A stretch of DNA of 56,240 nucleotides, from the NCBI GenBank assembly GCA_016222915.1, contig JACRQA010000085.1, positions 1-56,240 on the forward strand. Reading direction: 5' to 3'. The notes beneath the pieces were generated by a model. It was not told the DNA's origin. It did no database searches and worked only from the letters and a program-made list of their open reading frames with translations. A program made the translations under genes and the position numbers. Below, in pieces: positions 44,884 to 56,240 of the stretch (the first letter of the stretch is position 1; each line of letters begins with the position of its first letter). The DNA is from Nitrospirota bacterium. GTDB taxonomy: Bacteria; Nitrospirota; Thermodesulfovibrionia; UBA6902.

Positions 44884-45108
44884 ATGAACAAAGAACTTGA
44901 TTCAACACCGAATTTATCAAAGAGAGAAATAGAAGTGCTTACATGGTCAAAAAGAGGAAAAAGCTCCTGGGAAATATCAGCCATACTTAATATAAGCGAG
45001 AGAACAGTAAATTTTCATGTAAACAATGTCATGCAGAAACTCAATACTGTAAGCAGGACCCAGGCTGTTGCAGTTGCGATCGAAAGGGGGCTTATCAATA
45101 CGGATTGA
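44884..45108 (+). CDS. Stand-alone LuxR HTH protein (AHL-LuxR-type C-terminal domain only)
   Basis: LSKREIEVLTWSKRGKSSWEISAILNISERTVNFHVNNVMQKL; no sensor domain; RBS GGGGAC. Confidence 0.88.
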   Translation: MNKELDSTPNLSKREIEVLTWSKRGKSSWEISAILNISERTVNFHVNNVMQKLNTVSRTQAVAVAIERGLINTD

Positions 45109-45222
45109 TTATCCTCTGCCGCGTTAGCTATGGGTTACAACCATAGGTTGTACATGGTTTGGTTTGGCAGGCCCGCCAAGCTGTCTCTTGTTACCCTGAG
45201 CTTGTCGATGGGTCTGCTGACG

Positions 45223-47223
45223 TCATTCGGAGTGCTTGTCCAACATTTCTCTTATCCTTCCGAGAATCTCATCCGGAACCAGGGGCTTAAACAACAGTTC
45301 CGTCCCCTCTTCCGGCAGCAGCGGTTTATCAGATATCCCCTCCCGCTTTTCCGTATCCTCAGCGGCATAGCCACTCATAAAAAGGACTTTGGTCCCGGGG
45401 GCCATTCTGCTGATTTCTTTATATACGACTTTGCCGTTCTTTTTGGGCATTTTTACGTCTAATAAAAGTAAGTCGATGCGGTCCTTATTTTGAATAAATT
45501 TCTCCACTGCTTCATCACCGTCTCCGGCCGCAATGACGGTGTAACCGGCAAGTGTAAGAATATCGGTAATAAGCGTTCTCACATCACTGTCGTCTTCGGC
45601 CAGGAGGATTGTTTCCGTCCCACCCTTCACTTCATGCATGCCTTCAGTTCTTTCTTCCTCAGGCGCCGACTCGTCCAGGGGCAGGAGTATGTCAAATGCC
45701 GTTCCCTTGCCCGGCTCGCTCCTGACATCTATATATCCCTTATGCTGATTTATAATTCCGTATACAATGGACATCCCGAGTCCCGTCCCTTTCCCGACGT
45801 CTTTAGTAGTAAAGAAGGGATCAAATATCCTCTCTTTTGTCTGCAGGTCCATACCGGTGCCTGTATCTGAGATGGACAATAGTGCATACCTGCCGGGGGT
45901 GCGCGCATCGACTGCTCCGGAATACCGGGCATTCACATCAATTGTCCCCGTAGATATCACGAGTCGCCCTCCTTCAGGCATTGCATCTCTGGCATTTGTG
46001 ACAAGATTGATCAGAACATGTTCCATCTGGAGTTTATCGGCGAGCACGATTAAATCCTCTTTTGTGGTATCAACTTCAAGTTCTATGCTTTCATCGATAA
46101 TCCTTCTCAGCATGTCTTCAATGTCCGCAATGAGAAGATTAAGGTTTACCGGATGGGGATTTATGGTCTGTTTCCTGCTGAAGGTCAGAAGCCCCCTTGT
46201 CAGGGCCGATGCCTTATGGGTAGATGACAATATCTGGTCCAGAAAACGCCTTTCATCCTCTTTCTTCAGGCCTGTCTTCTGAAGCATTTGTCCATAGCTC
46301 TTTATTACCGTCAGTATGTTATTGAAGTCATGGGCGATACCTCCTGCTAACGTCCCCACTGCCTCCATCTTCTGTGAATGCCTGAGTTGTTCTTCAAGCT
46401 GCTGTTTTTCCTCTTCTCTCTGTTTAAGTGTATCGGCCATATCATTGAAGGCGGACGCGAGCTTGCCGATTTCATCATTGGTCTCAAGCGGCACCTTTTC
46501 AAACGCCCCTGTCGCTTCAAGGGACTTTACCCCTGTCATAAGCTTTTTGAGCGGGCTTATTATTCCCCTGATGATAAAATATGAAATTATCCAGCCGGCT
46601 ATCAGGAATAGCACTGGGACAATGATACTCTGCTTCACAACTTCCCTCATCATTTTCTGCATTTCTTCCTTGGTCAGGACAATCCGCACATACCCGATGA
46701 TGTCCCCCCCGGTACCGGGCCCTTGATCATAAAAGAGGGACTCTTCCGTATACTTGTCACCGGAAACAACCGGTGCCCAGAAATCAATATTTTCACTTTG
46801 TTCAATACTAATAATGGACCCTGAGCCTTTCACTTCCGTCATCGCCTTCATACGCACGTCCGGATGTTCATTTATCAAGTCAATAAGATGCTCCCTTCCA
46901 GGCTTTGCCAGGGCCTGAAGAAGTTTACCGTCAGGTGCATAGACCTGTACATAAATTGTCTCTTTATACTGAAGGATGCTCTCAATCGGGCCTTTCAGTA
47001 GTTCCTTATTCTCGGCAAATACGCCAAGTCTTAAACTGTGAGCTGTAAGGCCGGCAAGCTGCCTGCCTTCGTACAGTAAATGCTCTTTCAGCACCCGGTT
47101 TTGATAATAGACAATAAAGAAGGAAAATGACACATACATGACCATAATGAAAAGGGTGGTGATAAGCAGTATCTTTGCACCTAAGCTCTCGCGTTTTGCT
47201 TTCAGAAAGTCCGTTAATCGCAT
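45223..47223 (-). CDS. Hybrid sensor histidine kinase (periplasmic domain, HAMP, HisKA, HATPase, REC)
   Basis: QKMEAVGTLAGGIAHDFNNIL, NARDAM, GKGTGLG, C-terminal REC. Confidence 0.95.
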   Translation of the reverse strand: MRLTDFLKAKRESLGAKILLITTLFIMVMYVSFSFFIVYYQNRVLKEHLLYEGRQLAGLTAHSLRLGVFAENKELLKGPIESILQYKETIYVQVYAPDGKLLQALAKPGREHLIDLINEHPDVRMKAMTEVKGSGSIISIEQSENIDFWAPVVSGDKYTEESLFYDQGPGTGGDIIGYVRIVLTKEEMQKMMREVVKQSIIVPVLFLIAGWIISYFIIRGIISPLKKLMTGVKSLEATGAFEKVPLETNDEIGKLASAFNDMADTLKQREEEKQQLEEQLRHSQKMEAVGTLAGGIAHDFNNILTVIKSYGQMLQKTGLKKEDERRFLDQILSSTHKASALTRGLLTFSRKQTINPHPVNLNLLIADIEDMLRRIIDESIELEVDTTKEDLIVLADKLQMEHVLINLVTNARDAMPEGGRLVISTGTIDVNARYSGAVDARTPGRYALLSISDTGTGMDLQTKERIFDPFFTTKDVGKGTGLGMSIVYGIINQHKGYIDVRSEPGKGTAFDILLPLDESAPEEERTEGMHEVKGGTETILLAEDDSDVRTLITDILTLAGYTVIAAGDGDEAVEKFIQNKDRIDLLLLDVKMPKKNGKVVYKEISRMAPGTKVLFMSGYAAEDTEKREGISDKPLLPEEGTELLFKPLVPDEILGRIREMLDKHSE

Positions 47224-47226
47224 ATG

Positions 47227-48141
47227 TTAATCTCTGTTAATTACCCTTGCCTTGTTTAGTATTTCATTACTGATCGTAAGCCCTAATTTCTTGGCTGTCC
47301 TGTCATTGATCGTTATATTTATCTTTCTCGCGTTGGTATCAGGAATTTGGTTTACATCCGCGCCGGAGAGAATCCTGGAGATAATTTCAGCCGCCTGCAC
47401 CCCCATGTCATTAGGGTCCACTTCAAAAGACATAAGTGCGCCCATCTCAAGAAACTTGCTGGAAAAAGTGATTACCGGCAGCTTGTTTTTCAGAGTGTAA
47501 AGAAAAAGGATCTCAACGGTTTCAGGCGTGATGACACTTACATCCGGCAGCATCCAGAAGGCCTTTATCTTCCCTGTCATCAGATTCAACTGATCAGAGA
47601 CCTTCCTTGGATTTCCGACTGCATTCGCTGTCAGCCCGATACCCGCTGATGCCGCGGCGGCCTTTGCCTTTTCAATAAAACCGCCCTGCTGCACTGGATT
47701 GTAAAGGAGCCCGATATCACCGACTTCAGGAAGGGCCTGCCGGACAATATCCAGTTGCATGTCCGGGGGGATATCCATATTGACCCCCGTCATATTAGAT
47801 TTACCGGTAATATCGGATTGAGTGTCGGGGACCATCAAATAAACAATCGGTATGTTCTTAATTGCCTTGATTTTTTCAACCGCCCCGCTGCCGATGGCGA
47901 CAATTACCTGAGGTCTTTCTCTTTGCAATTCTTTTACAACATCGTATCTCTGCATTTCGGAAAGGAGAAATTGCTTCAGGTCACAGTTGCAGGCACCTTT
48001 CAGCCCTTTGAAGGCTTCATTATACGGCATGATACTAATGCTCTGGACAGAAATGACACTGGCGGAGTACACAGGAGTGGGGGCAAGGCAAGACAACACG
48101 ATAAAAAAAGCATAGCATAAATACCCTAATCCGGATTTCAT
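47227..48141 (-). CDS. ABC-type substrate-binding protein without a cognate permease, coupled to the kinase
   Basis: Signal peptide; IVAIG, PIVY, IGLLYNP, WMLPD, GAL, IN..TAKKLGL; 3 nt from the kinase start. Confidence 0.88.
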   Translation of the reverse strand: MKSGLGYLCYAFFIVLSCLAPTPVYSASVISVQSISIMPYNEAFKGLKGACNCDLKQFLLSEMQRYDVVKELQRERPQVIVAIGSGAVEKIKAIKNIPIVYLMVPDTQSDITGKSNMTGVNMDIPPDMQLDIVRQALPEVGDIGLLYNPVQQGGFIEKAKAAAASAGIGLTANAVGNPRKVSDQLNLMTGKIKAFWMLPDVSVITPETVEILFLYTLKNKLPVITFSSKFLEMGALMSFEVDPNDMGVQAAEIISRILSGADVNQIPDTNARKINITINDRTAKKLGLTISNEILNKARVINRD

Positions 48142-48266
48142 TCTTCTCTTGTGGTACAGTCCGTCCCCTTGATTAAAATATCGGGAGACCGTCTATTCTA
48201 ACATTTTGACGATATGCTGACAGGCAAGTGTCCCCGATCAATAACCCTTGGAATTTTATAATTAAA

Positions 48267-48295
48267 TTGCAATTTATACACTTGTCAATTATAAT
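48267..48295 (+). promoter_or_regulatory. Sigma70 promoter for the TonB receptor-peptide-radical SAM operon, overlapping a divergent TTGACA
   Basis: TTGCAA-N17-TATAAT on plus; TTGACA on minus at 48288-48283. Confidence 0.7.
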
Positions 48296-48331
48296 TGTAC
48301 ATTCATTTTAAATAATGCAGCGCTATAAAAC

Positions 48332-48351
48332 ACCTGTAAGAACTTATAGCT
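48332..48351. promoter_or_regulatory. lux-box-like 20-bp palindrome
   Basis: ACCTGTAAGAACTTATAGCT; 15/20 identical to the canonical lux box ACCTGTAGGATCGTACAGGT. Confidence 0.75.
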
Positions 48352-48370
48352 ACAAAAGGAGAATAACTTA

Positions 48371-50182
48371 ATGCGAAGAAATAACCTTAAAGGATTAAAA
48401 TATCCACTTCATCTTTCATTCTTAAAAAAATTATTTTTTTTAAGCGCCATCCTGTTTTTCCCGGCCGTTGCCTCTGCGCAGACAGAAGATGAGATGAAGA
48501 TGCTCCGGATGTATTTCAAGGAGGATGAACTCGTTGTGGCCCCCACCAGGTCACTGAAGCCCATTTCCCAGGTTGCAGAAAACATGAGCATTGTCACCGC
48601 TGATGAAATACAGGCGATGAACGCGCATACGCTCCTGGAAGTGCTTGAACATGTGCCAGGCATATATATCAATTATGCGGCAAATGATTTTTTCAAAAAC
48701 GGCTCTCTCTTCATCCAGCCGGCTTCATCAGCATGGGGATCTTCCCTCGGGGGCGTGATCAATATCGTGACAAAGGACATAGGGGACACTCTCACGCCGT
48801 CCGGGATGGTAAGCGCGTCATATGGGGAAAGGCAATCGCAGGATTACAACGCTGAGTTATCGGGTAAGGCAGGGATTGTCGGGTACTATCTTTACGCAGG
48901 AAGACAGGACTCCGACGGCTTAAGGTATAACAGGTTTTTTGAGAGAGACAGCCTTTATGGAAAGATCGATGTACAATTTCATCAGGATGTAAGATTCATG
49001 TTGACTGCCGGTTACAACGACGAACGCCATAACGAGGGAGACAGCAGTGACGATGACACTCACGGTCCAACAACAGATCGTGCCTCTTTTACGACCGGGA
49101 CTCTATTCGCCTCTATTACTGATAATCTCGCAATTGAAGCGTCATTGTATGAATTCAGACAGAAATTCGTTTTGGACCTTGAGACACTATCAACCGGGGA
49201 ATTACTTTACGAGGCAAACCTGACCGAAAATAAAAAGGGAGGCAGCGTCAAGCTTGTATATATTAATCACATGCATAATGCAGTCCTGGGATGGGACGTA
49301 AGCCACGGCGAACTCGATCAGACAGATGATTATCCCGGCCTGGGGACTTTCAAAAGCCAGCCGGGTATCAGTAAATGGGCGTTGTTTGTCAATGACACAT
49401 TGTCCATCGGCAAGTTAGCCGTTACCCCGGGGCTGAGATATGACGAGAACAATATCAGCGGCGACTTTACAAGCCCAAGCCTCGGCGCGACTTATAAACT
49501 CGGTAAAAAAACAATTCTCAGGGCCTCTGTGGCAAAGGGCTTCAATATACCGCCGCTCTCCTATACATCCGGCGCAAGTTTAGGTTATGAGCCGAATCCG
49601 TCACTCAAGCCGGAGACTGTGTGGTCATATCAGACAGGAGCAGAGTCTTTGATAGGAGATTATTTAAATTCCAGGATCGTATTTTTCCAGCACAACGTGA
49701 AGGACGAGATGCAATTGGAGACGGACGAAACTACGCAGATAAGTCACCATGTCAATACGGGAAAAACCAGGCGCACGGGCATGGAGCTTGATATGGAGAC
49801 TATTCCTTTTTACAATTTATCCCTGAAAGCCGGCTTCTCCTATTTACAGAGAAAGCTTCTCTCTGATGATAGCGACAACCCTGTCAATACAATTTATGAC
49901 TATAACATTGCAGTTAAATACGATGACATGAAATCCCTTTCCGCACAGCTTTCAGGTAATTATACGTGGTGGGACGTTACTGAAGATGCTGAATTTTACG
50001 ACCCAGCCTATAAAACAATGATATGGGACTTGGACCTCGTCCAAAAAATATTCTCAACGGACAGATTCAGTTCCAAGATTTTCCTCACGGCCCACAACTT
50101 ATTTAACGGCTCTTACTACACATGGGACATAAGCAAGAACCCGCGCAGGTGGGTCGAGGCAGGGGTGAGATTGGAATTCTAG
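48371..50182 (+). CDS. TonB-dependent receptor with an apparently shortened plug domain
   Basis: Signal peptide, VLEHVPGI, PASSAWGSSLGGVINIVTK, NPSLKPE, NLFN, terminal F. Confidence 0.9.
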   Translation: MRRNNLKGLKYPLHLSFLKKLFFLSAILFFPAVASAQTEDEMKMLRMYFKEDELVVAPTRSLKPISQVAENMSIVTADEIQAMNAHTLLEVLEHVPGIYINYAANDFFKNGSLFIQPASSAWGSSLGGVINIVTKDIGDTLTPSGMVSASYGERQSQDYNAELSGKAGIVGYYLYAGRQDSDGLRYNRFFERDSLYGKIDVQFHQDVRFMLTAGYNDERHNEGDSSDDDTHGPTTDRASFTTGTLFASITDNLAIEASLYEFRQKFVLDLETLSTGELLYEANLTENKKGGSVKLVYINHMHNAVLGWDVSHGELDQTDDYPGLGTFKSQPGISKWALFVNDTLSIGKLAVTPGLRYDENNISGDFTSPSLGATYKLGKKTILRASVAKGFNIPPLSYTSGASLGYEPNPSLKPETVWSYQTGAESLIGDYLNSRIVFFQHNVKDEMQLETDETTQISHHVNTGKTRRTGMELDMETIPFYNLSLKAGFSYLQRKLLSDDSDNPVNTIYDYNIAVKYDDMKSLSAQLSGNYTWWDVTEDAEFYDPAYKTMIWDLDLVQKIFSTDRFSSKIFLTAHNLFNGSYYTWDISKNPRRWVEAGVRLEF

Positions 50183-50255
50183 TTTGTTTCTCCTGAATAT
50201 TATGCTGTATCCTGTCATTGGCAGGTATTTATAAAGCAATAAAAGGAGGGAAGAC

Positions 50256-50357
50256 ATGGAAAGAGAAGAAATCATTGTGCTGGATAAGGGGGTCAGCCTC
50301 GATGAACTGGCTGACGAAATGCCTTGCTGTAGACCAATGCCGCAGGCGCTGAAATAA
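50256..50357 (+). CDS. 33-aa RiPP precursor peptide with a CC motif (geopeptide-like; not in the ORF track)
   Basis: RBS AAGGAGG; MEREEIIVLDKGVSLDELADEMPCCRPMPQALK; acidic leader and CC core directly upstream of a radical SAM/SPASM gene. Confidence 0.88.
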   Translation: MEREEIIVLDKGVSLDELADEMPCCRPMPQALK

Positions 50358-50367
50358 CGATTGATTA

Positions 50368-50399
50368 AGGGGGGGGCATCGGCCCTCCCCTGATTTTTT
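50368..50399 (+). terminator. Intrinsic terminator-like hairpin between precursor and maturase
   Basis: GGGGGGGGC-ATCG-GCCCTCCCC followed by TGATTTTTT. Confidence 0.7.
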
Positions 50400-50418
50400 G
50401 CATTTCTATAAATAAGAA

Positions 50419-51726
50419 ATGAAACTCTCCAAGTATGTAAAAATTTATCCATATAACGAAAGACCCGGTTACCTCCTCCTTTACTCCACAAAACAATCAT
50501 CTAAAATTCTGGTGAAAGAAGAGACAGTCAAGTCAATACTCAAGGGCTCCCTTCCTGCTGAACATGCGGCCTCCCTTTCAAATCTTGGCATGATCGTCAC
50601 CGACCCTGATGCTGAAAAAAATGAAATGCTCGGTTTTCTCGATGTATTAAACAAAAAGAATGAGACCATTAACATTATCGCTGTGCTCAACCTCGACTGC
50701 AATTTCAAATGTGTTTACTGTTACGAGGGAGAGCTAAAGGGCGCTCATTACATGACAGATGAAACTGCAGGACTGCTGGTTGACTTCATCCGGGACAGGA
50801 TGACCCCAAAGAAACAGACCATCAATATTGATTTCTTCGGCGGAGAACCTATGCTAAGCATTGACATGATCAAAACCATCTCCGGAGAATTGAAATCTTT
50901 TGCCGAAGAGAGGGGTGTTATATATACGTTTACCCTCATTACAAACGGCTCGCTTTTCAAAAGGCGTTATGCAGAAGAACTCACAACATTAGGGCTGACA
51001 GGCATCAAGACGACCATTGACGGACCTCCTGAGACTCATAATATCACCAGGCCCTTCAAATCAGGCGCGGGCAGTTTTAACAACATCATTGAAAACCTCA
51101 AACAGACCTGGGACCTAGTAACGACAATAATCGGAGGAAATTACACGAGAGAAAATTACCATAGATTTCCCCTGCTCTTTGATTATCTCTCACATGAAGG
51201 TCTCACTCCGGACAGGATACATGAGGTGAGGTTCACGCCGGTCATACAAACGTCGGGAGGTCTCAATTCTCCGGCAGATTTTTCAGACGGTATGATGTCA
51301 ATAAATGAGCCATGGGTGGTTCATGCGGGCTCTCTGTTAAGAGAAGAAATATTGAAAAGGGGTTACTTTTCATCAAAGATTTCACCTTCGCCGTGTCAGA
51401 TAGATATCGATGATTATTATGTGGTGAATCATGATGGGGGCATCTACAAATGCCACTCATTCATAGGCAACAAGGCGTTCCAGATAGGACACCTTCGGAA
51501 GCAGCCGTCCGACTGGACCCTATCTCATAAGACATGTATGTGGAAGAACAGCGAATGCATGGACTGCGTCTACCTTCCACTCTGCTTCGGAGGATGTCAG
51601 TACATGACATATGTGAGGGACGGATGCGTTGATAAAATTGACTGCAGGAGACCCTACCTTGAAGCCTCCCTCGAAACAATGATCAGGCAGGACATCATCT
51701 ATGCAGGGAAACCGAAAAATTCATAA
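50419..51726 (+). CDS. Radical SAM/SPASM peptide maturase (geopeptide maturase-like)
   Basis: CNFKCVYC, FFGGEP, ITNG, IDGP..H...R; SPASM C...KC...CMDC.YLPLCFGGC...C; N-terminal extension may be an RRE. Confidence 0.92.
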   Translation: MKLSKYVKIYPYNERPGYLLLYSTKQSSKILVKEETVKSILKGSLPAEHAASLSNLGMIVTDPDAEKNEMLGFLDVLNKKNETINIIAVLNLDCNFKCVYCYEGELKGAHYMTDETAGLLVDFIRDRMTPKKQTINIDFFGGEPMLSIDMIKTISGELKSFAEERGVIYTFTLITNGSLFKRRYAEELTTLGLTGIKTTIDGPPETHNITRPFKSGAGSFNNIIENLKQTWDLVTTIIGGNYTRENYHRFPLLFDYLSHEGLTPDRIHEVRFTPVIQTSGGLNSPADFSDGMMSINEPWVVHAGSLLREEILKRGYFSSKISPSPCQIDIDDYYVVNHDGGIYKCHSFIGNKAFQIGHLRKQPSDWTLSHKTCMWKNSECMDCVYLPLCFGGCQYMTYVRDGCVDKIDCRRPYLEASLETMIRQDIIYAGKPKNS

Positions 51727-51827
51727 ATCAATCTCTCAGTTCACATCGCAAAAAATAATCCCTTGAATTAATCCCCTGCTTTCCTAATAATAAAAAAACT
51801 AACGATAACTGGTAGACCGTTAATGAA

Positions 51828-52421
51828 ATGCATAAAATCCTGATCATCGACGATGACAAAGACATGAGGTCCGTGCTTTCCGATCTTGTCAGGTCTGGAG
51901 GATACGAGGTTTTTTCGGCAGGCAACGGAAAAATCGCACTGAAAGAGGTCAGCATCCATTCTCCGGATTTGATCCTTTTGGACATCAGGCTGCCCGGCAT
52001 AGACGGGATGACCCTCCTGGAGAGGATCAAGGGAATAGACAGGAGCATAATCATTATCATGCTGACCGGTCATGGAGATATCAAAGATGCTGTAAAAGCC
52101 ATTAAGCTAGGGGCCTTCGATTATATAACCAAGCCTTTTAACAACGATGAAATAATAGCAGCCATCAAAAAGGCCCTGCAGGCCAGGCCTCACACCGGCA
52201 GTTCTCAATCAGCCGCTCTTTCGCTCAGGGAAAAAGAGGTGCTCAACTGGTTAAAAAAGGGCAAGAGCTCCTGGGAAATTTCATCGATACTCAATATTGG
52301 TGAGAGTACGGTAAATTTCCACATTACCAACATCATGCAAAAGCTGAATGCCGTAAGCAGGACCCAGGCCGTAGCTGTTGCCATCGAGCAGGGGCTCATC
52401 AATTCTGATGGACCATCCTGA
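51828..52421 (+). CDS. Response regulator: REC fused to an AHL-LuxR-type HTH
   Basis: IDDD, LDIRLP, LTG, KP; then LSLREKEVLNWLKKGKSSWEISSILNIGESTVNFHITNIMQKL, very similar to 44884..45108. Confidence 0.92.
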   Translation: MHKILIIDDDKDMRSVLSDLVRSGGYEVFSAGNGKIALKEVSIHSPDLILLDIRLPGIDGMTLLERIKGIDRSIIIIMLTGHGDIKDAVKAIKLGAFDYITKPFNNDEIIAAIKKALQARPHTGSSQSAALSLREKEVLNWLKKGKSSWEISSILNIGESTVNFHITNIMQKLNAVSRTQAVAVAIEQGLINSDGPS

Positions 52422-52482
52422 GTCAGCTTTTCAAGTCTTTCCCGCATTATAATTTATGTCAAAAAACAGGTCAGTTAAGGGT

Positions 52483-52502
52483 ACCTATAATTTCTTACAG
52501 GT
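52483..52502. promoter_or_regulatory. lux-box-like 20-bp palindrome
   Basis: ACCTATAATTTCTTACAGGT; 15/20 identical to the canonical lux box; a -10-like TGTTAAAAC lies about 20 nt downstream. Confidence 0.75.
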
Positions 52503-52682
52503 GACCATGAGTGGTAATATCTGTTAAAACATAGATACAAATCCATAATCAACACCGGAATGCCGGGATTACTTTAAGGCTGTTGGCAGGAACCAAAGAC
52601 CTTTTTAATCTTGTTAAGGGACATGGCTGACTAGGGCTCACCGGTTTGTGTTGAATTTTTTTTACTGTTTTATCAGGCATGC

Positions 52683-52928
52683 ATGAAAACGGCGATGAAA
52701 TTCGATATTAATTCAGACACCTTAAACAAGACCGATCGGTGCAGGGACAACTATTCGTGTTTGACAGGCGAAGGTAAATGTCTTTGCGAAGTTGAATCAC
52801 ACTTCGATAAAAATATACTATTTATCAAGACCCCTAAAATATTATGCAACTACTACATGTCGTTTGGATATTCCCATATCTGCAAGTGCCCCGCCAGGAA
52901 AGAAATTTTTTATCGTTATAACCAGTAA
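52683..52928 (+). CDS. Small Cys-rich hypothetical protein
   Basis: Six Cys (C....SCL, C.VE, CNY..SFG...C.CP.R) in 81 aa. Confidence 0.7.
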   Translation: MKTAMKFDINSDTLNKTDRCRDNYSCLTGEGKCLCEVESHFDKNILFIKTPKILCNYYMSFGYSHICKCPARKEIFYRYNQ

Positions 52929-53227: not shown

Positions 53228-55654
53228 ATGGACGAAATAAACCTCATGAAATCATCCAGCCAACTGTCTTCCCGCGAGGACGAAAACAGTTTCTTCAAGG
53301 CAAATGTACTGATAGTTGAAGACGAAGCGATTATAGCTATAGAATTGCAAAAGCATCTGGAGAGCATGGGATACAGAGTCACCTCAAAAGCGGCTTCAGG
53401 GGAAGATGCTGTTCTGATGGCACGGGAGGAGAACCCGGATTTAGTGCTGATGGACATCACATTGTCAGGAAAGATAAGCGGTATTGAGGCAGCCAGGCAG
53501 ATCCGGACTAGCCGCAATATCCCGGTCATTTATCTCACGGCACATTCAAATGAAGAGACACTGAAGCAGGCGACACAGACAGAACCATACGGATATCTGA
53601 TAAAACCGGTCGGGGACAAAGAACTTCATACCGCTATCGAGATCGCCCTTATCAAACACAGGACAGAAAAGCAGCTACGCTCCGCCGTTTCAAAGGCGCA
53701 GGAAGAAGAAGCCAAGACAAAAGCGATTATTGCGGGTATAGGCGACGGGATCATCCTGCAGGATACCGATTATAAAATAATCTATGAAAATCAGATCCAA
53801 AAAGACTTGTCCGGCTCCCATCTCGGCGACTACTGCTACAAGGCGTATACGGGCAGAAATACCATTTGCGAAAGTTGTCCTGTTGAAATGTCCTTCAGCG
53901 ACGGGCAAATTCACAAGGGAGAAAGAAGCTTGGCCACCTCAAAAGGGACCAGGCATTACGAGCTGACCTCATCTCCCATCAGAGATACGGCAGGGAAAAT
54001 CATAGCAGCGGTCAAGGTCCTCAGGGACATCACCGAGCGTAAGCTGATAGAGGAGGAACTGCTGAAACACAGGGAGAAACTTACCCTCCTGGTGGAAGAC
54101 AGGACCTCTGAGCTTACTTCAGCCGTCGATCTTCTCAAGAATGAAATTATGGAACGCCGGAAGACTGAAGACGCCCTGCGGGAAAGCGAAAGACGGTACA
54201 GAGAGCTATTCAATTATATGAGCAGCGGCATAACAGTGTATGAGTCCCTTGAAAACGGGGATGATTTTATCATCAAGGACTTCAACCATGCAGGTGAGGC
54301 CATTGATAAAATCAGAAAACAGGATATAATCGGGGAAAGGTTGACCAAGGTATTTCCCGGAGTCAAAGAATCCGGTCTCTTTGAAGTATTTAAGAGAGTT
54401 TGGAGGACCGGGGAAACCGAGCATCATGCCATCTGGTATTACGATGACAAGAGGATAAGCGGCTGGAGGGACAATCACATCTACAGGTTGTCAACCGGCG
54501 AGCTGATATCGGTTTATAACGATATCACGGACCAGGTAATCTCGGCAGAAAGGGAATCAGCCCTTCTCCGGCAGCTTAAAACCATATTCGAGAACTTTCC
54601 TGTCGGCATTGTCTATCTCGATGATAAATTCAGGATCATCAGCTCAAATAAATTTTTTGATGATTTTGCAGGATTCCGTGAGGGAGAGTTGAACGGGAAA
54701 ATATGTTACGAAGCAGTGGGTGAATATGCTGATGATCCGGCAAGAAAGGGAACAGACAAAATCTGCTCTTTTTGCAGGAAGGCTGAGTGTGCCGGAAGTA
54801 AAAAACCCGTGACAATGGAGCGGCCCATAAAAGACAAATTTATCAGGGTCACCACTATCCCTGAACTGAATGAAAAGGGCAATATCCACCGCTTTATGGA
54901 AATAGTTGAAGATATCACCGACCGCAAGCGGGCCGAAGCAGAGGCCGTTCGAGCCAGCCACCTGGCAGCGCTCGGCGAGCTGGCTGCCGGGGTGGCGCAT
55001 GAAATCAACAACCCCATAAACGGCATTATCAACTACACACAGATATTGCTGAACAGCGGCACAGAGGGGAACAGGGAACATGATATCGCCAGGAGAATCA
55101 TAAAAGAAGGCGACCGGATAGCTAATATTGTAAGAAGCCTCCTTTCTTTTGCGCGGGACAACACAGGGGACAGGGTCCCGGCAAATATTGCGGACATAAT
55201 TTCAGAGACCCTGGGACTTATCGAAATCCAATTGAAAAAAGACGGGATCAGGCTCGTCCTCGATATGCCCCGGACACTGCCTGCGGTTTTTGTTCAGCCC
55301 CAGCAGATAGAGCAGGTATTTTTAAATATAATAAGCAATGCCCGTTATGCGCTGAACAGTAAGTACGACGGGACGCATGATGATAAAATACTTGGGATCT
55401 TCGGTCAGGAGTCAAAGAACGGACCGCGCCCGTGCATCCAGGTCGTATTTCATGACCGGGGTCCGGGCATTCGTCCGGACATCCTTGATAAAATAATGAA
55501 CCCGTTTTTTTCCACCAAGCCCGGCGGTATCGGCACAGGCCTTGGATTAAGCATCAGTCACGGTATAATAAGTGATCATGGAGGCAGACTTTTAATTGAT
55601 AGCGTTGAGGGCAAGTTCGCTAAAGTAACAGTAGAGCTGCCGGTCAGGCATTAA
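53228..55654 (+). CDS. Cytoplasmic hybrid histidine kinase (REC, three PAS, HisKA, HATPase)
   Basis: VEDE, MDI, LTA, KP; PAS ends DITER/DITD/DITDRK; LAAGVAHEINNP, GTGLGL. Confidence 0.94.
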   Translation: MDEINLMKSSSQLSSREDENSFFKANVLIVEDEAIIAIELQKHLESMGYRVTSKAASGEDAVLMAREENPDLVLMDITLSGKISGIEAARQIRTSRNIPVIYLTAHSNEETLKQATQTEPYGYLIKPVGDKELHTAIEIALIKHRTEKQLRSAVSKAQEEEAKTKAIIAGIGDGIILQDTDYKIIYENQIQKDLSGSHLGDYCYKAYTGRNTICESCPVEMSFSDGQIHKGERSLATSKGTRHYELTSSPIRDTAGKIIAAVKVLRDITERKLIEEELLKHREKLTLLVEDRTSELTSAVDLLKNEIMERRKTEDALRESERRYRELFNYMSSGITVYESLENGDDFIIKDFNHAGEAIDKIRKQDIIGERLTKVFPGVKESGLFEVFKRVWRTGETEHHAIWYYDDKRISGWRDNHIYRLSTGELISVYNDITDQVISAERESALLRQLKTIFENFPVGIVYLDDKFRIISSNKFFDDFAGFREGELNGKICYEAVGEYADDPARKGTDKICSFCRKAECAGSKKPVTMERPIKDKFIRVTTIPELNEKGNIHRFMEIVEDITDRKRAEAEAVRASHLAALGELAAGVAHEINNPINGIINYTQILLNSGTEGNREHDIARRIIKEGDRIANIVRSLLSFARDNTGDRVPANIADIISETLGLIEIQLKKDGIRLVLDMPRTLPAVFVQPQQIEQVFLNIISNARYALNSKYDGTHDDKILGIFGQESKNGPRPCIQVVFHDRGPGIRPDILDKIMNPFFSTKPGGIGTGLGLSISHGIISDHGGRLLIDSVEGKFAKVTVELPVRH

Positions 55655-55661
55655 TATTATT

Positions 55662-56240
55662 ATGGCAAAGATCCTTATAGTCGACGACGAAGAAAGTATA
55701 CGTTTCACCTTTGACAGCTTCCTGTCGGACGAGGGGCATGAAGTGACCACCGCGGGAGAATACAATGAGGCCCTCGATATTATTTCCCGGGATGAGTTTG
55801 ATCTCATATTCATGGACATCGTTTTAGGCGGCAAGACCGGGATCGACCTTCTGAAGGAAGTCAAAAAAATGGGCCTTCACTGTCACGTTGTAATGATCAC
55901 CGGATACCCCAATGTCGAGACAGCGTCCGCAGCCCTCCGGTTAGGGGCTTTCGATTATATTTTCAAACCGGTCAAGCAGGAGATACTACTTCATATAACC
56001 GGCATGGCCCTGCAGAACAAGGCCCTCAGGGACGAAAATGAGAAATACCGGGCCAACCTTGAGGCGATCTTCAAGAGTGTAAAGGACGCTATAATTACCG
56101 TAGACAAAGACATGGCCGTACTTCAGGCAAATGAGGCCGCAGAAAAGATCTGTGGATTGACCAGCGGGTCTTCAGGCGGGAACTTTGGCGCAATACAGAC
56201 AGACTGCAACAGCAAGTGTCTTGAGGCGCTGAAAAAAACC
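55662..56240 (+). CDS. Response regulator with REC and PAS domains (partial; possibly NtrC-like)
   Basis: Not in the ORF track; MAKILIVDDEESIR...MDIVL...ITG...GAFDYIFKP, then PAS start DAIITVD; open to the window end. Confidence 0.88.
   Translation, partial: MAKILIVDDEESIRFTFDSFLSDEGHEVTTAGEYNEALDIISRDEFDLIFMDIVLGGKTGIDLLKEVKKMGLHCHVVMITGYPNVETASAALRLGAFDYIFKPVKQEILLHITGMALQNKALRDENEKYRANLEAIFKSVKDAIITVDKDMAVLQANEAAEKICGLTSGSSGGNFGAIQTDCNSKCLEALKKT

Follow-up and report, generated by a model that had tools for sequence, protein, structure and literature searches.

The window analysed here is a stretch of 56,240 nucleotides (nt) from a Nitrospirota bacterium, contig C172 of the 3.0-Mb assembly G000 (227 contigs, 94% complete). 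Between positions 44884 and 52928 it carries the genes of a putative peptide-signalling system, centred on a short peptide precursor and a radical S-adenosylmethionine (SAM) enzyme with a SPASM domain that would modify the peptide. An earlier note on this DNA had listed these genes together with two palindromes resembling lux boxes, and had read them as a circuit in which the modified peptide is the signal. From a list of open reading frames (ORFs) and scans of the window proteins against Pfam and NCBIfam, each of the genes and both palindromes were found where they had been placed. The features are listed below by coordinates and strand, with lengths of proteins in amino acids (aa) and HTH standing for helix-turn-helix.

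44884-45108, plus strand: stand-alone LuxR-type HTH protein with GerE as its sole Pfam domain (82.7 bits); the longest ORF starts from TTG 44854
45223-47223, minus strand: hybrid sensor histidine kinase, HAMP-HisKA-HATPase_c-REC in Pfam
47227-48141, minus strand: binding protein of family PF04392 (ABC_sub_bind), 122.7 bits in Pfam, with a signal peptide
48267-48295, plus strand: sigma-70-like promoter, TTGCAA-17 nt-TATAAT, 10 of 12 matches in a consensus scan
48305-48310, minus strand: predicted -10 hexamer TAAAAT for the binding-protein/kinase operon, 21 nt from box 1
48332-48351, oriented to the minus-strand operon: box 1, 20-bp lux-box-like palindrome ACCTGTAAGAACTTATAGCT, ending 19 nt before the receptor start codon
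48371-50182, plus strand: TonB-dependent receptor, Pfam barrel 109.4 bits, plug matched in part
50256-50357, plus strand: geopeptide precursor of 33 aa, MEREEIIVLDKGVSLDELADEMPCCRPMPQALK, with a Cys-Cys pair and AAGGAGG upstream
50368-50391, plus strand: terminator-like hairpin, 10-bp stem with 8 G-C pairs and a T run
50419-51726, plus strand: radical SAM/SPASM geopeptide maturase, TIGR04280
51828-52421, plus strand: response regulator with REC (117.5 bits) and LuxR/GerE (77.4 bits) domains in Pfam, the last gene of the peptide operon
52483-52502, oriented to the plus strand: box 2, 20-bp lux-box-like palindrome, reverse strand ACCTGTAAGAAATTATAGGT, with a -10-like TAAAAC at 52525-52530
52683-52928, plus strand: Cys-rich ORF of 81 aa, without a Pfam or NCBIfam family, after a 260-nt gap behind the regulator

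The binding-protein/kinase pair on the minus strand is divergent from the receptor, precursor, maturase and regulator genes, which all lie on the plus strand.

Proteins of the locus

The maturase matches the model TIGR04280, 'geopeptide radical SAM maturase', over its full length (1-428 of 428) with 545.7 bits against a cut-off of 400. Its SPASM domain is matched by TIGR04085 with 49.5 bits, and the translation shows a CxxxCxxC motif and a C-terminal cluster of cysteines. The next-best families are CefB (178.5 bits), TIGR04463 (147.3) and PapB (138), with the SCIFF maturase at 103.8; the likenesses to CefB, PapB and SCIFF all lie far under the cut-offs of those families, and the resemblance to the ranthipeptide and sactipeptide systems is one of family only. 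By these matches the protein is a bona fide geopeptide radical SAM/SPASM enzyme and, by analogy, it probably forms thioether cross-links at the Cys-Cys pair of its substrate. At 51709 and 51748, in the 3' end of the maturase gene and just beyond it, contigs of three to four sequencing runs each lack one base; these differences are either strain variants or assembly errors, and with them the last codons of the maturase would change.

Amongst 401 sampled genomes of the same phylum, 44 have a protein above the TIGR04280 cut-off, and up to 20 kb of DNA was fetched around each of 40 maturases. In the window the 33-residue ORF sits 62 nt upstream of the maturase behind a strong ribosome-binding site (AAGGAGG), and it combines a leader with a hydrophobic-V-L-x-K/D-G motif, the invariant Cys-Cys pair and a tail of eight residues. 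Small ORFs with an I/V-x-V-L-x-K/D-G leader and the same invariant pair are found by motif just upstream of the maturase at 36 of the 40 loci, with none detected in this way in L055, L064 (at a contig end), L071 and L073; a Cys-Cys precursor is likewise present at the related locus L095. A script recovered precursor ORFs from the loci themselves in 35 of 42 cases. In all 35 the tail beyond the Cys pair is 7-13 aa long, and in 16 of them Gly-Ala stands one residue past the pair. Within this family the peptide of the window is nearest to those of L056 and L095. None of the peptide models in NCBIfam matched the 33-residue peptide, even at E ≤ 10, and its membership is therefore assigned by motif and position, by which it fits the Cys-Cys geopeptide precursor family. 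Of the suggestion that the two genes form a geopeptide pair, the hidden Markov models thus bear out the maturase, while the peptide is placed by motif only. Eight loci (L043, L046, L052, L065, L067, L068, L072 and L078) have precursors with long Lys/Ala-rich leaders resembling histone tails; these are without the usual hydrophobic motif and keep the Cys pair and the short tail.

The hairpin at 50368-50391 starts directly after the stop codon of the precursor. A strong hairpin lies within 60 nt past the precursor in all 35 of the detected cases, with folding free energies of -12.9 to -31.2 kcal/mol and z ≤ -2. It is probably an attenuator that lets the precursor transcript exceed that of the maturase.

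The receptor is of the small, BtuB-sized type and shows weak likenesses in NCBIfam to siderophore, haem, B12 and PqqU receptors. Around 45 residues of the plug that are present in five of five homologues are absent from the window receptor. At exactly 48718|48719, contigs of three runs (X1, X2 and X3, labelled groundwater metagenomes and deriving from one study) contain 138 extra letters, corresponding to 46 codons, and a contig of a further run (X4) has a loose end at the same position. A real deletion is ruled out by these extra bases. Either a gap in the assembly or a minor variant accounts for the short plug and, as the contigs of X1, X2 and X3 carry the 138 bases, the receptor is intact in the sampled population.

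The kinase has two membrane spans around a periplasmic domain of approximately 155 aa, followed by the HAMP, HisKA, HATPase_c and REC domains. The binding protein encoded beside it has no ATP-binding cassette (ABC) permease or ATPase as a partner. In the earlier note the two had been regarded as coupled, and a model of the complex agrees with this. The model was built from residues 27-304 of the binding protein and residues 38-200 of the kinase, with alignments of 29 paired sequences, and gave docking scores of 0.64, 0.63 and 0.64, compared with 0.01 for the best of three controls. The runs share at least 95% of their contacts and the predicted local distance difference test (pLDDT) score of the partners is at least 87. 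A mark of this height is reached by 58 of 80 solved complexes and by 2 of 110 mismatched pairs, a calibration that is only approximate because our own alignments were used for the model. The binding protein is therefore best described as predicted to dock on the periplasmic domain of the kinase. Common to the sensors of homologous loci are a sCache_4-like periplasmic domain and a HAMP domain, while the kinase cores (HisKA, HisKA_2 or HisKA_3) and the partner regulators vary.

Binding-protein-coupled hybrid kinases are known from LuxP-LuxQ, which responds to autoinducer-2 (AI-2), and from TorT-TorS. The arrangement in the window is like these in having a periplasmic binding protein without a transporter encoded next to a hybrid kinase on which it is predicted to dock. 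It differs from them in that the binding protein is of the PF04392 family, the sensor domain is sCache_4-like, Hpt is missing and the kinase cores are swapped between loci. No Hpt domain is found by Pfam in the hybrid kinase, and in the assembly the matches of PF01627 (Hpt) are confined to two CheA-like proteins, one in the window (712 aa) and one on contig C99 (1051 aa). The earlier observation that no Hpt protein is at hand holds for free Hpt proteins throughout the assembly, though not for the domain itself, which is contained in the CheA-like protein of the window. The relay from kinase to regulator would be either direct or via an unassembled gene, and since no free Hpt protein was found direct phosphotransfer to the regulator is probable.

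The other three PF04392 proteins of G000 also adjoin sensor proteins and not ABC transporters (C197 18816-22096, C61 9344-12135 and C108 6533-9422). On C108 the neighbours, as judged by eye only, include an ORF resembling outer-membrane proteins and one resembling multihaem proteins.

Gene linkage across maturase loci

The 40 maturase loci were searched with the proteins of the window. No more than 6 kb from the maturase, 37 of the 40 have a homologous TonB-dependent receptor, 34 a kinase, 33 a PF04392 protein and 31 all three, and so the expectation that homologous maturases would be accompanied by the signalling genes is borne out. Five of the nine incomplete loci have a contig edge nearby (L040, L042, L061, L064 and L068), and at L048, L069, L070 and L071 one or more of the three genes are missing though there is DNA on both sides. 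The genes usually follow one another on one strand in the order receptor, precursor, maturase, binding protein, kinase and regulator, with the receptor usually immediately before the precursor in one operon. A binding-protein/kinase pair divergent from the receptor, as in the window, is also seen in L056, L039, L041, L050, L075 and L095.

When the genes of 42 loci were clustered, the maturase was shared by 41, the receptor by 38, the sensor by 35 and the binding protein by 30, the last being an undercount caused by a greedy gene caller. Further shared clusters are the REC-LuxR regulators (15 loci), sigma-54 regulators (8) and a half-MFS (major facilitator superfamily) protein (6). No other cluster is common to more than five of the 42 loci. 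ABC permeases and ATPases are among those missing, and this speaks for sensing more than for import into the cytoplasm. The half-MFS protein, found beside the maturase, is the only candidate exporter that was seen.

Genomes with two maturase loci keep one receptor for each locus. This is the case in G242, G370 and G000, which also have a full second set of sensor genes, and at the second locus of G322 there is a receptor and no binding protein. The second locus of G000 (L079; C93 1-6881) comprises a maturase cut by the contig end, a half-MFS protein of 189 aa, a receptor of 708 aa, a binding protein and a HAMP-GAF-HisKA_2 kinase. The cassette as a whole is most closely matched by L095 (G401:C73:53000-72999), which has the same layout with boxes at the same two places; the identities are 63% for the maturase, 52% for the receptor, 50% for the binding protein, 61% for the regulator and 54% for the Cys-rich protein.

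Lux-type boxes and regulators

Of their 20 positions, boxes 1 and 2 share 18. These two sites are the only matches in the window to a degenerate pattern that fits them both, and in 100 shuffles a pair of matches never arose, consistent with the two lux-box-like palindromes having been correctly recognised from the start. The classical lux box of the acyl-homoserine lactone (AHL) systems is a 20-bp palindrome, ACCTGTAGGATCGTACAGGT, centred at -42.5. Those described here share the 20-bp length, the ends ACCTG...CAGGT and a -10 hexamer at 21-22 nt, whereas the autoinducer-binding domain of AHL-type LuxR proteins (PF03472) was not found and the HTH is either driven by a receiver domain or stands alone. 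Pairs of boxes are present in the window, L040, L045, L057 and L095; the ends have the form ACCT...AGGT across loci, and the two boxes of a pair agree at 17-19 of 20 positions while the sequence is specific to the locus. Genome-wide, the sole further close copy in G000 has two mismatches and is on contig C125 (22290-22309; L080 5291-5310). It has a -10 hexamer at the same spacing and is located upstream of two ORFs of 183 and 185 aa without a Pfam family, beside the rplU operon.

The boxes of these five loci and the C125 site, 12 in all, were examined for a -10-like hexamer, defined as TA with at least four of six matches to TATAAT, 21-22 nt downstream of the box. Eleven of the 12 have such a hexamer in exactly one orientation; in the sequences holding the first ten boxes the same holds for 6% of positions overall and for 12% of those that are AT-rich. 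The one miss is the L095 box near the receptor, which has CATTAT at 21 nt. With such a spacing, transcription would be expected to start some 43 nt beyond the box centre, as at lux boxes, and by sequence the boxes are promoter elements with a LuxR class II layout.

Of the two boxes in the window, box 2 faces the Cys-rich gene. Box 1 is directed to the minus strand, towards the binding-protein/kinase operon, and at the same time lies between the sigma-70-like promoter and the receptor start codon. On its consensus match only, the sigma-70-like promoter at 48267-48295 is a candidate for the operon of receptor, peptide, maturase and regulator. The idea that the regulator feeds back through a box on the peptide operon is therefore not upheld for the window, where box 1 faces the binding-protein/kinase operon, though the geometry does fit it in L045 and L057, where the box stands ahead of the whole collinear operon from receptor to regulator. 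In L040 the two boxes head a rhodanese-domain gene and a PilZ-domain gene. In L095 one box is 21 nt before the receptor start, equivalent to box 1, and the other is between the regulator and the homologue of the Cys-rich gene.

Motif searches in the intergenic DNA thus found boxes at equivalent places in four other loci, but they are not general to the cassette. This was ruled out both by the overall count (5 of 43 loci) and by a search for palindromes with at least 8 of 10 pairs up to 450 nt upstream of 33 receptors, in which only L045 had a box with the right -10 spacing. In L056, the closest relative of the same family, with a 65% identical regulator, there is no box in the two equivalent intergenic regions. 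Within box 2, one low-depth X3 contig from a diverged strain has T for C at 52498, with which the right half-site would mirror the left exactly.

Orthologues of the regulator with 61-65% identity come after the maturase in L040, L056 and L095. The stand-alone HTH protein is identical to the HTH of this regulator at 53 of 79 residues (67%); on this basis it is a paralogue of the DNA-binding domain of the regulator and probably recognises the same boxes. The best NCBIfam likenesses of the HTH include SdiA and PA1136-type regulators, and genes encoding only a LuxR HTH also come after sigma-54 regulators in L067 and L068. The earlier note had found no autoinducer-binding domain in the window, and this can be extended to the whole assembly, in which PF03472 has no match while the control search was positive in E. 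coli. PF00765 (LuxI) has no match in the assembly either, a weak negative as the search likewise matched none of 14 control genomes.

The Cys-rich gene is predicted, from the position of box 2, to be the first output gene driven by a box, and belongs to an uncharacterised family. A homologue with 54% identity stands behind the box in L095, another with 27% identity is just upstream of the L048 receptor, and in the Atlas the protein falls in unnamed clusters only, of 77-87 aa. Downstream of it, at 53228-56240, are a REC-PAS-PAS-HisKA-HATPase kinase of 808 aa and a REC-PAS protein cut by the end of the window. These genes may be co-transcribed from box 2 and extend the cascade.

Proposed peptide sensing and its alternatives

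On balance, we favour the view that the locus is a self-contained cassette which produces a radical-SAM-modified peptide and senses it via its own receptor, binding protein/kinase and LuxR-type regulator. A basal promoter would give a transcript of receptor, precursor, maturase and regulator, with the hairpin keeping that of the precursor in excess. The SPASM maturase would read the conserved leader and modify the core at the Cys-Cys pair, and the peptide would leave the cell by an exporter encoded outside the locus. External peptide, being too large for porins, would regain the periplasm through the dedicated TonB-dependent receptor, where the PF04392 protein would take it up and dock on the sCache-like periplasmic domain of the hybrid kinase. 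The kinase would then govern phosphorylation of the REC-LuxR regulator, probably directly, and the regulator, acting on the lux-type palindromes, would switch on the binding-protein/kinase operon (box 1) and the Cys-rich gene (box 2). The gene content, the conserved linkage, the predicted docking and the geometry of the boxes are results of the analysis, while export, re-import, the peptide as the ligand, the direction of phosphotransfer and a measurement of cell density are inferred. On this reading the system would serve quorum sensing rather than the sensing of a metallophore or cofactor. Of the circuit first suggested for this DNA, the family, the linkage, the docking (as predicted) and the boxes remain, while the feedback target of box 1 and the generality of the boxes do not.

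Such a cassette has precedents in part. Nisin and subtilin are autoinduced lanthipeptides of Gram-positive bacteria, sensed directly by the membrane kinases NisK and SpaK, which act with the regulators NisR and SpaR. The likeness is in having a modified ribosomal peptide, a maturase and a kinase/regulator pair in one locus, with the regulator acting on promoters of its own locus; the differences are the outer membrane, the TonB-dependent receptor, the binding protein and the radical SAM/SPASM maturase, and here the ligand is presumed. In SusC-type import in Bacteroides the ligands are glycans, which are bound directly by a periplasmic hybrid two-component sensor. There too a TonB-dependent transporter delivers a large ligand to the periplasm and a two-component sensor controls the locus, whereas in the present case the ligand would be made by the cell itself and a separate binding protein is interposed.

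Several observations weigh against peptide sensing. The solved PF04392 proteins bind single aromatic amino acids (L-Trp, L-Tyr and L-Phe) and not peptides (PMC10443332). The hybrid kinase has a receiver of its own, yet no Hpt partner was found in the assembly. There is no conserved exporter or leader protease; the half-MFS protein occurs at 6 of 42 loci and not in the window, where, as the earlier note had remarked, no exporter was identified. Relatives of the binding protein (E ≤ 1e-20) are present in 166 of the 401 genomes and the maturase in 55, a threefold difference, and 12 loci without a maturase comprise four trios of receptor, binding protein and kinase and eight pairs of binding protein and kinase. 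Lastly, as box 1 sits within the peptide operon leader, it could serve to repress production just as well as to activate sensing, and boxes are present in only 5 of 43 loci, with none found in the other 38, L056 among them.

Some of these points are shared by an alternative that would seem unlikely, in which the receptor, binding protein and kinase sense an unrelated compound, such as an aromatic amino acid derivative or a product of another organism, and in response regulate an antimicrobial or effector peptide. The ligands of the solved family members (PMC10443332) would suit it, as would the position of the other three PF04392 proteins of G000 next to sensors, which suggests a general sensing module, and the fact that neither an exporter nor an immunity gene was identified at the loci. 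So would the trios (L085, L086, L089 and L094) and pairs (L083, L084, L087, L088 and L090-L093) that occur without a maturase. Binding proteins of at least 170 bits are found in G031, G081, G086, G106, G197, G217 and G244, where the maturase has no match at E ≤ 1e-60. In the 12 orphan loci neither a maturase nor a Cys-Cys ORF was found, using a motif that itself detects no more than 28 of 40 true loci. These trios and pairs rule out a restriction of the binding-protein subfamily to maturase carriers.

The position of the orphans in the family, on the other hand, speaks against this alternative. In a maximum-likelihood tree of 51 binding proteins they are nested within the maturase-linked clade and do not form an older sister group, and the starred branches force at least four label changes; the tree is a quick one, with support from the Shimodaira-Hasegawa-like approximate likelihood ratio test (SH-aLRT) only and some long branches. 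The nesting is as expected if the producer genes were repeatedly lost, or repeatedly gained, and the sets without a maturase may be receiver-only systems or their descendants. No gene, moreover, is linked to the maturase more tightly than the receptor (37 of 40), which usually stands right before the precursor in the same operon, and paralogous peptide loci keep receptors of their own, to which G242, G370 and G000 add their own sensor sets. Immunity or ABC export genes of the kind typical of bacteriocins are not conserved.

It is distinctly unlikely, in our view, that the peptide is a secreted public good, binding metal or resembling a cofactor in the manner of methanobactin or PQQ, which the receptor recaptures while the binding protein and kinase register its loaded or available form and so tune synthesis, possibly negatively via box 1. 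The vicinal Cys pair is the only invariant feature of the core, the receptor weakly resembles those for siderophores, haem, B12 and PqqU, and box 1 is flanked by the putative promoter of the operon and the start codon of the receptor, all of which would be in keeping with such a role. SPASM enzymes are known to make peptide-derived cofactors, and methanobactin operons combine a ribosomal peptide (MbnA) with a TonB-dependent receptor (MbnT) and a periplasmic binding protein (MbnE). The window resembles them in encoding a ribosomal peptide with a dedicated receptor and binding protein, but enzymes of the MbnB/MbnC type are missing from the locus and the binding protein is paired with a kinase and not with uptake. 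The 42 loci have no conserved gene for an inner-membrane importer or a reductase, and none related to metals. The tails are hypervariable between lineages and yet constrained in length, which fits specificity of recognition better than a fixed chelator or cofactor, and the formation of thioethers by the maturase, if it occurs, would use up the thiols. The box of L045 and L057 is positioned for activating the whole operon and not for blocking it.

It is very improbable that the genes adjoin one another without a common function and that the palindromes are unrelated operators or arose by chance: boxes are indeed absent from most loci, but the linkage is kept in 31-37 of 40 loci across many families, the two boxes of the window share 18 of 20 positions and a pair of such sites was seen in 0 of 100 shuffles, the -10 spacing is fixed at 11 of 12 boxes and the docking model passes its controls.

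Peptide signalling has been regarded as a speciality of Gram-positive bacteria, as peptides do not freely cross the outer membrane. If production and sensing of the peptide are combined as we favour, the pairing of a modified peptide with a dedicated outer-membrane importer and a sensor in the periplasm would account for the way in which diderm bacteria could employ peptide signals. It would also be the first functional hypothesis for the catalogued, uncharacterised geopeptide family, and would propose a role for the transporter-less PF04392 binding proteins that stand beside sensor kinases in many of the sampled genomes. The hypothesis lends itself to direct tests in a cultured carrier, whichever of signal, metallophore or cofactor the peptide proves to be. 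More tentatively, and as a possibility that we would not yet call probable, geopeptide cassettes could represent a widespread and undescribed form of peptide quorum sensing in diderms, in which the hypervariable tails provide private channels, the sets without a maturase are eavesdroppers and the LuxR HTH with its boxes is the output used here.

The likeness to the catalogued geopeptide system (TIGR04280) is in the maturase, which exceeds the cut-off, and in the adjacent short Cys-Cys peptide with the leader of the family. The catalogue entry comprises only maturase and peptide, with no function, and the receptor, binding protein, kinase, regulator and boxes are added here. A description of the cassette, or of catalogued geopeptide loci with the sensor set, was not found in the literature, which was judged in part by title or abstract. 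A cluster for a ribosomally synthesised and post-translationally modified peptide with a TonB transporter has been reported in Bacteroides (PMC11002830), and a selenopeptide maturase (PMC9204691) is unrelated to this system. The name 'geopeptide' suggests relatives of Geobacter as carriers.

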